A stretch of DNA of 64,000 nucleotides from Clostridia bacterium. Its GTDB lineage: Bacteria > Bacillota > Clostridia > TANB77 > CAG-508. A program made the translations under genes and the position numbers. The stretch is taken from the NCBI GenBank assembly GCA_045531335.1, contig JAZSDU010000053.1, positions 7,408 to 71,407 of the forward strand, in the 5' to 3' direction. Below, piece by piece: positions 17,412 to 37,720 of the stretch; position 1 is the first letter of the stretch; each line of letters opens with the position of its first letter. Under the pieces are notes generated by a model. It did not search any database, was not told the DNA's origin, and saw nothing but the letters and a program-made list of their open reading frames with translations.

Positions 17412-18263
17412 CAAATTATATAAATTGCTGTCTATACATAGTTTTGCTCTTGCTGCTGTTTTTTCATCAGATGCAAGTGCGTTTTCTAAGAATTCAGGAT
17501 GTGCTATTAAGAAATTTCTCATAGTTTCATCTGGATTTTCATAGAAGTTTTTTAACATTTCAAATTGATTTTCGTTTATTATATTCATGCTAAGTGCTTT
17601 TTCAAATAAACTTGCGTCTATATTAATCATTGATAATGATTTTACATTTTCGTTTTCTAATTTTTCTTTTCCACCTTGCATTCTATCTACAACTACTGTG
17701 CTCCAAGCAATTTCTGCTTCTAAGCTTTTGATTGCAGGAATCCAAGCTCTTATATAACTAGATGCTTCTGTTATTAAGTCAGCTATATGTAATACTTTAG
17801 CTCCTTTTACTTCTGATTTATTAAGTTCTTTTTCAAAAGTGCTATCTGTTACTACCATACTTAAGTCTTTGTATATTGTAATATGTGGTTTTGAAAGTAA
17901 GTTTGCAATTATATTAGAGAAGAACCAATCTCTTCTTTCACCACCTGAAATGTAGTCAATTTCATCTACATTTATATTTTCTTTTATAAATGCAATCATT
18001 TCATTAATTACATTTTTATAAATTTCATTTTCATTATAATGGTTAAATGTTTCTTCAAATACTTTTTTAGGAAGAGTCTCCTTATTTTCTTTTTCAGAAT
18101 CAATAAATTTTAATAAATTTACTGCGTCTTGTTCACTTCCATAAAGGAAATGTGTGTTTATGTAATATGGCCCTATTTTACCAGAAGTATACCAAAATGG
18201 TTTGTTGTCTGGGCATATTCTTAAAGCATTTGTTTCAAATAAATATGATACTAAGTTACTCAT
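17409..18263 (-). CDS. phosphoribosyltransferase-like protein (possible atypical orotate PRTase) divergent from the pyr cluster
   Basis: FWYTSGKIGPYYIN resembles the OPRT N-terminal F.L.SG..SPYY motif. VLHIADLITEASS is a degenerate PRPP loop. GGAGG lies 5 nt before ATG 18263. Confidence 0.5.
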   Translation of the reverse strand: MSNLVSYLFETNALRICPDNKPFWYTSGKIGPYYINTHFLYGSEQDAVNLLKFIDSEKENKETLPKKVFEETFNHYNENEIYKNVINEMIAFIKENINVDEIDYISGGERRDWFFSNIIANLLSKPHITIYKDLSMVVTDSTFEKELNKSEVKGAKVLHIADLITEASSYIRAWIPAIKSLEAEIAWSTVVVDRMQGGKEKLENENVKSLSMINIDASLFEKALSMNIINENQFEMLKNFYENPDETMRNFLIAHPEFLENALASDEKTAARAKLCIDSNLYNL

Positions 18264-36400: not shown

Positions 36401-37324
36401 ATGAATAAAGTAAAAAATACATCTATATCGTACAGAAAAGTTATAGCAATAAGTGTAGTTTTTATAATAATCTTAGGGATATCAGTAATTGCGGGAAATG
36501 TTAAATTAAATAATGTAAAAATTAAATTCTCAAACAATCACGAAATTACTGTATTAACATCAAAAACAAAAGTATCTGAAATATTACAAGAAAACCATAT
36601 AATGATATCATCAGATGAGACAGTAATACCTACAACTACTGAAGATATAACAGATACAAAAACAATTATAATTACAAAAGTAGGAGAAGAACCTACTAAA
36701 ATAGCTAAAGTATCAGAAGAAGAATTAAATAATAATATAGATGAAATAGCTGAAAACTATTCAAACATTACAGAAGAAATTGTTACTGTACAAGAAGAAA
36801 TACCATTTGAAACAATAACAAAAGATGTTTCAAACGGAAGTGAAACAACAAATAAAGTAATACAATCAGGTAGAAATGGTATTAGAGAAGTGACTTATAA
36901 AGTAAAATATAAAGAAGATGTAGAAATTGAAAGAATAGAATTATCATCTAAAATCATAAAAGAACCAGTAAATAAGATAGTTCAAATTCAAACAAAAGTT
37001 ACATCAAGATACTCTTCTAGAGGAGCAGCTGTTACAACAGCATCTTCTGGTAGATACAAAGTAACAGCATATTGCGCATGTGTTAAATGCTGCGGAAAGA
37101 CAAATGGTATAACAGCATCAGGAACAAAAGCTACAGCAAATAGAACAGTTGCTGCACCAAGTTCATTCGCATTTGGAACAAAAATAGTGATGAATGGTCA
37201 AACTTATGTAGTAGAAGATAGAGGTGGAGCAATACAAGGTAATAGAATAGACCTTTATATGAATTCACATTCAGAAGCTTTAGCTTGGGGTGTAAGATAT
37301 TTAGATGTAGAAGTATTAAATTAA
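36401..37324 (+). CDS. G5 and 3D domain cell-wall-associated protein (YabE-like)
   Basis: GGAGGG SD before ATG 36401 and a TM. G5-like EEIPFETITKD..VIQSGRNGIREVTYKV. 3D domain YKVTAYCACVKCCGKTNGITASG..VEDRGGAIQGNRIDLYM. Confidence 0.82.
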   Translation: MNKVKNTSISYRKVIAISVVFIIILGISVIAGNVKLNNVKIKFSNNHEITVLTSKTKVSEILQENHIMISSDETVIPTTTEDITDTKTIIITKVGEEPTKIAKVSEEELNNNIDEIAENYSNITEEIVTVQEEIPFETITKDVSNGSETTNKVIQSGRNGIREVTYKVKYKEDVEIERIELSSKIIKEPVNKIVQIQTKVTSRYSSRGAAVTTASSGRYKVTAYCACVKCCGKTNGITASGTKATANRTVAAPSSFAFGTKIVMNGQTYVVEDRGGAIQGNRIDLYMNSHSEALAWGVRYLDVEVLN

Positions 37325-37347
37325 AAACAAGAATATATTTACAAATA

Positions 37348-37376
37348 TTGACATATAATAAAATATAAGTTATAAT
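37348..37376 (+). promoter_or_regulatory. consensus promoter driving a short + strand RNA
   Basis: TTGACA-17 nt-TATAAT (perfect consensus), about 40 nt upstream of a terminator. Confidence 0.55.
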
Positions 37377-37382
37377 AAATAT

Positions 37383-37450
37383 AGCTTAAGCGACAAAGTT
37401 GTTTATTAAAAAACATAAAAAAGACTAGGAGTGCATGTCCTAGTCTTTTT
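37383..37450 (+). ncRNA. candidate type I antitoxin sRNA (~68 nt)
   Basis: Bounded by the consensus promoter and the terminator AAAAAAGACTAGGA-GTGCATG-TCCTAGTCTTTTT. Segment 37392-37415 is a direct repeat of 37513-37537, so it is complementary to the start-codon region of the convergent small ORF. Confidence 0.5.
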
Positions 37451-37455
37451 CCTTT

Positions 37456-37527
37456 TCAGTTTTCATCAAACTTGCTTAATATTAAGTAAGTTATGTACAA
37501 AACTAAAAGTCTGACAAAGTTGCTCAT
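37456..37527 (-). CDS. 23-aa hydrophobic peptide, candidate type I toxin (Fst-like architecture)
   Basis: Encodes MSNFVRLLVLYITYLILSKFDEN. GGAAGGAGG SD lies upstream. It shares the bidirectional terminator at 37417-37450. Confidence 0.5.
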   Translation of the reverse strand: MSNFVRLLVLYITYLILSKFDEN

Positions 37528-37584
37528 TATAAAAACAACCTCCTTCCTGCCACTAAGCAAGTCACTAAGCAAGTAGGCATAAAT

Positions 37585-37613
37585 ACTATAAAACACATGA
37601 ATAAAAATGTCAA
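37585..37613 (-). promoter_or_regulatory. promoter for the small toxin-like ORF
   Basis: Minus strand TTGACA-17 nt-TATAGT. Confidence 0.5.
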
Positions 37614-37720
37614 TATTTACCAATTAGTTTCAAATACAATTTAGAATTTAACAAAAAATAAAGTTGTAAAATACCTCTATATGTGATATAAATAGTTTAA
37701 TAATTTATGTAAGGAAGGTA

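Follow-up and report, generated by a model that had tools for sequence, protein, structure and literature searches.

Does a cassette of about 280 bp, self-contained and without prior annotation, encode a type I toxin-antitoxin module in a gut Clostridia genome, and if so, which of the known modules does it resemble? The cassette lies in a stretch of 64,000 nucleotides (hereafter the window) of contig JAZSDU010000053.1, which belongs to assembly GCA_045531335.1 (1.39 Mb in 54 contigs, 27.9% GC). We give a probability of about 0.75 to the reading of the cassette as a self-contained, type I toxin-antitoxin-like unit that follows the plan of the Enterococcus faecalis pAD1 par locus. This reading, which the initial annotation had put forward as a candidate, is strongly supported by the co-evolved, cognate-specific pairing of a small RNA (sRNA) with the start region of its mRNA in three paralogues, by dozens of homologues and by the coding signature of the short open reading frame (ORF) that the mRNA carries.

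The proposed mechanism is as follows. A strong promoter on the minus strand would direct the synthesis of an mRNA of ~160 nt for a hydrophobic peptide of 23 residues, and a consensus promoter on the plus strand that of an RNA of ~70 nt. Before the sRNA binds, a hairpin at the 5' terminus of the mRNA would occlude half of the Shine-Dalgarno (SD) sequence and bury the 5' end. The single-stranded 5' part of the sRNA would then pair with the mRNA from just past the SD, across the AUG, to about codon 9, which would block ribosome loading and probably create a duplex that is a substrate for degradation. When the sRNA supply drops, the mRNA, which is the more structured of the two RNAs, would be translated, and the peptide would act on the membrane and stop growth. 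The elements are the following, with positions counted in the window.

37344..37625: whole cassette, whose edges are a 12-nt inverted repeat, AAATATTGACAT / ATGTCAATATTT
37348..37376, plus strand: promoter of the sRNA (antitoxin candidate), TTGACA (37348-37353), 17-nt spacer, TATAAT (37371-37376), 12/12 consensus
37383..37453, plus strand: predicted antisense sRNA of ~70 nt, probable start A37383, ends placed from the promoter and terminator
37392..37416, plus strand: direct-repeat copy within the sRNA, GACAAAGTTGTTTATTAAAAAACA, the segment predicted to pair with the toxin start region
37417..37451, both strands: common bidirectional intrinsic terminator, stem of 13-14 bp, loop of 7 nt
37456..37527, minus strand: ORF of 23 codons (toxin candidate), MSNFVRLLVLYITYLILSKFDEN, and stop; ATG at 37527
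37513..37537, minus strand: translation initiation region, putative target of the sRNA, from past the SD through codon 5; second copy of the direct repeat
37539..37547, minus strand: Shine-Dalgarno sequence GGAAGGAGG
37542..37578, minus strand: 5' leader of the toxin mRNA, with a tandem ACTTGCTTAGTG x2; its 5'-terminal GCCU is predicted to pair with the 5' half of the SD
37585..37613, minus strand: promoter of the toxin mRNA, TTGACA (37613-37608), 17-nt spacer, TATAGT (37590-37585), 11/12 consensus

When both strands were read, each element was found where the initial annotation had placed it. This holds for the two near-consensus convergent promoters (11/12 on the minus strand, 12/12 on the plus strand) and for the SD and the 23-residue hydrophobic ORF of the minus strand (37547-37539 and 37527-37456). 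It also holds for the bidirectional terminator, a perfect 13-bp stem (37418-37430 / 37438-37450) with T-runs after it on both strands. Because one terminator serves both RNAs, their 3' hairpins are exact complements. The toxin mRNA probably starts at G37578 and would be ~160 nt long; the ends of both transcripts are those that we infer from the positions of promoters and terminator. As a class, promoter-like sites are not enriched in this AT-rich DNA (28% GC; 20 found against 23 expected), and the case therefore rests on arrangement and conservation, not on hexamers alone. Terminator-like sites do exceed expectation, with 3 in 3 kb where 0.5 would be expected.

Pairing of the small RNA with the start region

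The initial annotation had noticed a direct repeat between the sRNA and the start of the toxin mRNA and had concluded that the two RNAs could pair across the translation initiation region. Indeed, the segments at 37392-37413 and 37513-37534 are identical at 19/22 positions, and the two T/C differences become G:U pairs. The predicted duplex spans the start codon of the ORF at -28.7 kcal/mol (z -5.9), a value to be compared with -14.3 +/- 2.5 kcal/mol in 1000 dinucleotide shuffles, none of which (0/1000) reaches it. At ~34 x 38 nt, from just past the SD to codon 9 (about 37501-37538), it is longer than was first described. The sRNA itself would have a mini-hairpin at its 5' end, AGCUUAAGC(G), a region left single-stranded for pairing (about 37384-37416) and the terminator hairpin; a palindromic 5' start of the AGCTTAAGC type is also found in the sRNAs of A-type copies and of other subtypes.

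A DNA search of the same genome, combined with a scan of all small ORFs preceded by an SD, revealed two further copies, which makes three in total. They differ from the window copy (copy A) in sequence and have the same layout. Copy B (C11:17985-18129) encodes MKNILKIVDLLLILLILKEFDT, and copy C (C53:5769-5912) a peptide of 22 residues. Each combines a toxin promoter with a 5' hairpin, an SD, an ORF of 22 codons and a bidirectional terminator, as well as a convergent TTGACA-17-TATAAT promoter that would drive an RNA of ~74 nt. Codons 4-9 distinguish copy B from copy C, and the sRNAs of the two diverge to match. When all mRNAs and sRNAs of copies A, B and C are combined in a 3x3 matrix, the cognate duplexes reach -28.7, -33.5 and -30.5 kcal/mol, whereas the six non-cognate pairs lie between -12.0 and -20.2 kcal/mol. 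This is the pattern that co-resident, orthogonal toxin-antitoxin pairs should show, and the same orthogonality was reported by Weaver for par-pAD1 and par-EF0409 (PMC7472228).

The preference for the cognate partner extends to the family. In 29 modules from many genomes, all with a recognisable ORF and sRNA promoter, pairing averages -28.7 kcal/mol for cognate and -13.5 kcal/mol for non-cognate combinations; the cognate mRNA is the best partner in 25/29 and comes second in the other 4, after a close orthologue. Covariation between the two molecules was examined in 17 B/C-type modules by joining each start region to its own sRNA and leaving RNAalifold to find the helix. The program returned a helix of 12 pairs across the AUG, 5 of them (5/12) with double compensatory changes. 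Its cells are paired in 92.6% of cases, compared to 84.1% in shuffles, and its covariation score is 0.294, compared to 0.141; in both respects no shuffle (0/500) reaches the real value. When the register is shifted by 1-3 columns, about 40% of the cells are paired and the score is at most 0.073.

Structure of the mRNA and nature of the peptide

The mRNA of copy A is predicted to fold at -48.0 kcal/mol in its minimum free energy (MFE) structure, in which the bases of the GGAGG are mostly paired (probability of being unpaired 0.00-0.34). A 5'-terminal hairpin of the form CCUUUC...GAAAGG, with GCCU...AAGG as its equivalent in copy A, masks the SD over its 5' half, a fold predicted for every copy. 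In an alignment of the family, this hairpin is paired in 96.8% of cells and 9/9 of its pairs show double changes; for the main helix of the terminator the values are 99.7% and 8/8 (47 family matches), and a long hairpin within the ORF also covaries. Taken together, the intramolecular helices have 94.4% of their cells paired, against 78.4% in shuffles, and 37/42 pairs with double changes, figures obtained on an alignment that had been fitted to the covariance model. Sequence and comparison between copies thus bring out the architecture of the cassette, a cognate-specific, co-evolving complementarity and conserved mRNA structures.

A further claim was that the mRNA folds back from its 5' to its 3' part. 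It stands as far as the complementarity goes: the tandem CACTAAGCAAGT x2 (37551-37574) is complementary to ACTTGCTTA (37470-37478). The pairing is, however, neither conserved nor prominent. It is not used in the MFE structure, and constrained folding puts the cost of forcing it at about 2 kcal/mol and its share of the ensemble at about 2%. The A-type relatives nearest to copy A, L037 and L044, share its leader but lack a complement within the ORF (z about +0.5); partial pairing is retained only by the copy at the syntenic site of the congener G002, and the 12-mer duplication of the leader is found in the window copy alone. Constrained folding and conservation together led us to reject the fold-back as a feature of the family. 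It may be a local, metastable feature of copy A, and what appears in its place as the conserved element is the local 5' hairpin predicted to occlude the SD.

The ORF bears a clear coding signature. Among the 65 ORFs of the hydrophobic class, 49 have 22 codons and 7 have 23, and the family conserves the start codon, the stop position and an SD at canonical distance. In the 49 ORFs of 22 codons, mean column entropy is 1.04, 0.44 and 1.41 bits at codon positions 1, 2 and 3, respectively. The second codon position is nearly always T where the residue is hydrophobic; at codons 7, 8, 10, 12 and 17 it is an invariant T while the first and third vary by 1.5-1.8 bits, which means that L/I/V/F/M are selected whatever the nucleotides; substitutions are exchanges among these residues. 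In the same 49 ORFs, the ratio of non-synonymous to synonymous polymorphism (pN/pS) is lowest in the annotated frame, at 0.53, and rises to 0.72 and 2.13 in the two others. The family consensus is M-K-x-phi-x-K-phi-phi-A-L-phi-phi-phi-L-L-I-L-K-E-F-D/N-x, and that of the subtype in which copy A falls is MSN-phi-phi-x-LL-x-LYI-phi-YLIL-x-KFDED. The peptides, of 22-23 residues, have a grand average of hydropathy (GRAVY) of 0.6-1.6 and end in K-E/K-F-D-x.

Searches with the peptides returned little. Nine family peptides compared with Pfam-A by hmmscan (E up to 10) matched 0 families, Fst included. Nor was there any match to NCBIfam, in a PDB profile search (E up to 10) or with PADLOC; PDB includes the NMR (nuclear magnetic resonance) structures of Fst and PepA1 (PMC7472228). 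A single match to PHROGs at E 0.12 was disregarded. Five of the hydrophobic peptides have no exact copy among about 15 billion proteins, presumably because they are too short for gene callers to report. At the RNA level, the best Rfam 15 matches over copy A score 18-24 bits, compared to gathering scores of 49-115, so that no family is reached, and no match over copies B and C reaches its gathering score either. The sub-threshold matches seen at permissive thresholds over the three copies (TD-2, sRNA71, Phe_leader, Enterococcus Ref1C) were rejected as chance.

Two kinds of aberrant homologue were observed. In L014 / L040 (G010:C20:180-324), a TAA at codon 19 leaves a peptide of 18 residues next to an intact cognate sRNA, and L045 (G011:C30:11478-11623) encodes a C-terminally extended peptide of 32 residues, MRNLLKLLVLVIVYIVINDRLVISKNTRNGNS. 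Truncated and extended homologues may represent decay or diversification of the toxin with the RNA partner kept.

A second class of modules was also encountered: L047 (G004:C17:8725-8899), L048 (G005:C18:11378-11545), L063, L104, L125, L131 and L153. Their 5' hairpin, which would occlude the SD, is nearly identical (ACCTTTCACTTAAAGGTAGAAAGGGG), and a convergent sRNA with a TTGACA-17-TATTAT promoter starts with AGCTTAAGC and repeats the start region of the mRNA; its terminator is its own, beside that of the mRNA. The ORFs of this class, of 28-31 residues, are highly charged and not hydrophobic (MTNSELILRLVEMLLEQKEETMKAKEEKE; MTSYDLIWQLIDMLLAEKSKAEETNKDKD; GRAVY -0.76). One of these peptides, of 29 residues, is present, unnamed, in public protein collections, on 61 contigs.

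It is tempting to see in the two classes a modular, lineage-specific par-like RNA chassis, of which reduced-genome gut Clostridia would hold many orthogonal copies with unrelated cargo peptides; we consider this a tentative idea. The chassis, as one might cautiously define it, would consist of the conserved SD-occluding 5' leader, the convergent sRNA with its consensus promoter and 5' mini-hairpin, and the pairing at the start codon. Its cargo would then possibly comprise several hydrophobic subtypes of 22-23 residues together with the non-hydrophobic, highly charged class of 28-31 residues. If this were true, the chassis would be a general switch for the conditional release of micro-proteins, beyond membrane toxins, and the 22-residue peptides, with a core of 8-11 residues that does not suffice for a canonical transmembrane span, may work otherwise than by pore formation.

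Distribution of the family and rival explanations

A covariance model built on seven B/C-type mRNAs, with copy A left out, recovers copy A at 59 bits. It finds matches in 21/28 genomes of the genus, with up to 6 per genome. In an order-level sample, 39/251 genomes and 15/40 genera are matched, and 36 of the 39 genomes (the query genome included) belong to the same family; in a class-level sample of 301 genomes, matches are confined to members of the family, with 0 in the ~290 genomes from other families. A pattern scan of species representatives, filtered with the model, confirmed modules in metagenome-assembled genomes (MAGs) only, all labelled uncultured Clostridia, Clostridium sp. or Eubacteriales and coming from human, rabbit, mouse, goat and other guts. 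The first pattern search in relatives had matched the start region of dnaA in three genomes; these false positives were dropped.

The promoters are conserved with the rest. Across 48 family modules, that of the sRNA matches the consensus at 12/12 positions in 25 and at at least 10/12 in all 48, and that of the toxin, usually one step weaker, at 10-11 of 12 in 46. The sRNA promoter outscores its toxin counterpart in 31 modules, ties with it in 11 and falls below it in 6, which is what one would expect if the antitoxin is produced in excess (compare PMC7472228). In B/C-type modules (G000:C11 about 18170-18200; L019-L034), the spacer of the sRNA promoter is conserved across species as a near-palindrome, TTGACAAATATTGTAAA. 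Such conservation goes beyond need, and the spacer may be an operator for a regulator or overlap a promoter of the opposite strand.

The window copy is flanked by a G5+3D (yabE-like) gene and a MurJ/SpoVB-like flippase gene, and the congener G002 has a cassette at the same site; in most members of the genus, the orthologous spacer is without it. In G004, G005, G006 and G014, the aligned sites have the two genes 96-158 nt apart, with no cassette, a different terminator and other palindromes. A-type copies occur elsewhere, in G006, G020, G023 and at a second place in G002, and their BLAST similarity to the window copy covers exactly 37344-37625 (query 645-926), from promoter to promoter. The A-type homologues L036, L037 and L044-L046 do not adjoin yabE-like or flippase genes, which prompted the comparison of filled and empty sites. 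Both states occur at one locus, as is typical of toxin-antitoxin cassettes, and genomes have up to 6 copies. Copies B and C, for their part, have flanking sequence in common with homologues in other species; inheritance of these loci is therefore vertical, with co-evolution of the pairing region. Selection on the peptide, the presence of multiple copies and presence or absence at the locus thus come out of comparison between genomes, as the pairing does.

Several observations were made around the insertion sites. A perfect 12-nt inverted repeat, at 37343-37354 and 37607-37618, consists of both -35 boxes and an identical upstream context, and similarity to copies elsewhere stops there. The stop of the yabE-like gene is at 37324, and no terminator of its own precedes the sRNA promoter; read-through would end at the terminator of the cassette. 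The 3' untranslated region of the yabE-like mRNA would then include the antitoxin sequence in full, and the supply of antitoxin would be tied to the expression of a cell-wall gene. In the cassette-free L205 (G006:C21), L206 (G014:C6) and L207 (G005:C21), the spacer between the yabE-like and flippase genes carries other long palindromes, such as GGACGGACTTTTTT...AAAAAAGTCCGTCC and GGGGATAGACCCC...GGGGTTTATCCCC, so that small structured inserts seem to favour this intergenic site. A match to the T-box leader (L017:1660-1843 on the plus strand, 76.7 bits, E 7.5e-16), short of the Rfam gathering score of 93, adjoins copy C (G000:C53) at a distance of about 20-200 nt.

What else could account for these data? 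A reading in which the elements are unrelated, the hairpin being the terminator of the yabE-like gene and the promoters arising by chance in 28% GC DNA, or the whole being a decaying, non-expressed repeat, would agree with the absence of enrichment in promoter-like hexamers (20 found for 23 expected) and with the fact that the yabE-like gene has no other terminator ahead of the hairpin. It is already strongly disfavoured, to the point of being the least probable of all, since the arrangement recurs in three copies and dozens of genomes with promoters conserved at both ends and pairing that covaries, since relatives with an empty site have a different yabE-like terminator, and since about 290 Clostridia genomes outside the family have no match to the model. 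Scarcely more probable is a pair of convergent non-coding RNAs, for instance an sRNA and its sponge, with a fortuitous frame of 23 codons. Such short frames are many in AT-rich genomes, the ORF is tiny, and much of it lies within a conserved RNA hairpin that could by itself be the cause of sequence conservation; against it stand the conserved SD spacing, start and stop, the 22-23 residues in 56/65 ORFs and a three-base periodicity (entropy of 0.44 at position 2, compared to 1.04 and 1.41 bits) with exchanges among L/I/V/F/M. A leader peptide or attenuator was rejected on the layout: the mRNA ends directly after the ORF, and no gene follows on the minus strand.

The rival that deserves most attention, although we hold it to be unlikely, is an antisense-controlled small membrane or regulatory micro-protein that is no toxin, such as a modulator of a transporter or of an envelope enzyme, whose level the sRNA would tune. 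The comparative evidence speaks for a translated small ORF regulated by antisense RNA, and toxicity is not among the things that it shows. Moreover, copies B and C behave as stable chromosomal loci with synteny, the peptide has a short hydrophobic core, and what the sister class carries on this RNA chassis is a highly charged peptide without hydrophobic character, hence not toxin-like in the usual sense. On the other hand, tight repression in several layers (consensus antisense promoter, SD occlusion, pairing at the translation initiation region) is a hallmark of type I systems (PMC7472228), as are orthogonal paralogues in multiple copies with diversifying pairing regions and presence or absence at a locus (PMC7472228), and these features favour the type I toxin-antitoxin cassette.

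Several facts nevertheless weigh against the latter. Both transcripts are predicted from the sequence; the toxicity of the peptide, its action on the membrane and the trigger of its release are what we infer by analogy. The uninterrupted hydrophobic core, of 8-11 residues, or about 14 if residues 4-5 around a basic residue are counted, is short for a membrane-spanning helix. With no profile match, Trp or motif, the peptide does not belong to the Fst/Ldr family. The relative with a premature stop has kept its sRNA intact, and its peptide is therefore dispensable, at least there. Copies B and C keep their synteny from species to species, in neighbourhoods of housekeeping genes. The cassette gave no blastn match among 50,697 phage and 72,556 plasmid records; pattern scans of viral contigs retained 23 + 3 loci, none scored by the covariance model, and one that was read lies in GC-rich, unrelated DNA. 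An addiction role on mobile elements thus finds no support.

Relation to known type I systems

On sequence and comparison taken together, these cassettes make up a family that is both real and new, one of type I toxin-antitoxin-like modules in which the architecture is that of par, and their putative toxin and sRNA form a family distinct from Fst. The finding is solid but not surprising, because par-like loci are common in Firmicutes. The features of par, as reviewed by Weaver 2020, include convergent promoters, a bidirectional terminator and direct repeats through which the RNAs pair at the translation initiation region (PMC7472228), as well as a 5' stem-loop that covers the SD and an extreme 5' end that is itself paired (PMC7472228). 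At the sequence level, the cassette has the convergent promoters of par (E. faecalis pAD1, Fst/RNAII) and its single bidirectional terminator with complementary stem-loops. As in par, the antisense RNA overlaps the 3' end of the mRNA only, not the ORF, and the regulatory pairing would take place outside the overlap, through oppositely transcribed direct repeats that cover the translation initiation region and are cognate-specific and covarying. A 5' stem-loop would likewise sequester the SD and keep the extreme 5' end paired, the 5' end being deduced here from the promoter, and the pairing sequences are poorly conserved between paralogues, which would make co-resident copies orthogonal.

There are also differences. 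The cassette has a single, interrupted complementarity of ~34 nt, whereas par has separate repeats, DRa and DRb; its peptide has 22-23 residues against 33 for Fst, and its mRNA ~160 nt against ~230 nt. Its host lineage is one of uncultured gut Clostridia. The terminator loop of copy A, as read from the sequence, contains no YUNR U-turn (CAUGCAC on the mRNA, GUGCAUG on the sRNA), while that of copy B has UUCG; not all par homologues have the U-turn motif (PMC7472228). The Fst/Ldr toxins are characterised by a Trp between the transmembrane helix and the charged C-terminus and by P/D/S/T-xxx-G(C) within the transmembrane segment (PMC7472228). Neither signature is present here: there is no Trp in the window peptide or in the consensus, where position 20 is Phe (32/49) or Leu (14/49), and the three peptides of the genome, like the consensus, have no P/D/S/T-xxx-G and neither Pro nor Gly. 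The label of Fst-like given at the outset is therefore apt for the architecture of the locus and not for the peptide, which has no HMM (hidden Markov model) match, no Trp and no PxxxG.

Closer in phylogeny, the type I modules of Clostridioides difficile (CD2517.1-RCd8, CD0956.2-RCd10 and others) are of the same bacterial class and also consist of convergent genes (PMC5961336, PMC6563280, PMC7699646), with small, previously unannotated hydrophobic peptides that have a charged C-terminus. Their toxins are longer, with 34-59 residues and lysine-rich tails (PMC6563280), and their antitoxins overlap the toxin mRNA in long complementary stretches, which points to a mechanism by degradation (PMC6563280); most of the modules lie in prophages or beside CRISPR arrays (PMC6563280). 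In the cassette, by contrast, the overlap is limited to the terminator, pairing at the translation initiation region would be achieved via the repeat, and a link to phages was not found in the searches described above.

The length of the peptides and the number of copies call to mind another system. The Ibs toxins of Escherichia coli have 18-19 residues, are extremely hydrophobic and are encoded in multiple orthogonal copies, each with its cognate antisense RNA, Sib. Very short hydrophobic peptides and multiple orthogonal copies per genome are features that the cassette has in common with Ibs/Sib, although the latter belongs to Gram-negative hosts and has no common terminator and no repeat-based pairing in trans. 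Sib RNAs are fully overlapping cis-antisense transcripts that run across the whole ORF (PMC8594479).

In T1TAdb, a 3' overlap that spares the ORF, together with an interaction outside the overlap, is recorded for Fst/RNAII and SprA1/SprA1as only (PMC8594479), and this is the geometry of the cassette. The general definition of type I systems (PMC6563280, PMC8594479), a hydrophobic peptide of less than 60 residues with a charged C-terminus and an antisense RNA predicted to bind its mRNA, describes it as well. Homologues of known type I toxins are mostly absent from Clostridia (PMC6563280), a gap that the present modules would fill for a whole family of uncultured gut Clostridia, whose genomes, of 1.1-2.0 Mb, still keep up to six copies each. 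With 22-23 residues, the toxin candidate would be among the shortest. Dozens of orthogonal sRNA/mRNA pairs on a common scaffold should lend themselves to the study of how antisense specificity evolves, and such pairs might be used as building blocks of RNA devices like those in PMC12721322.

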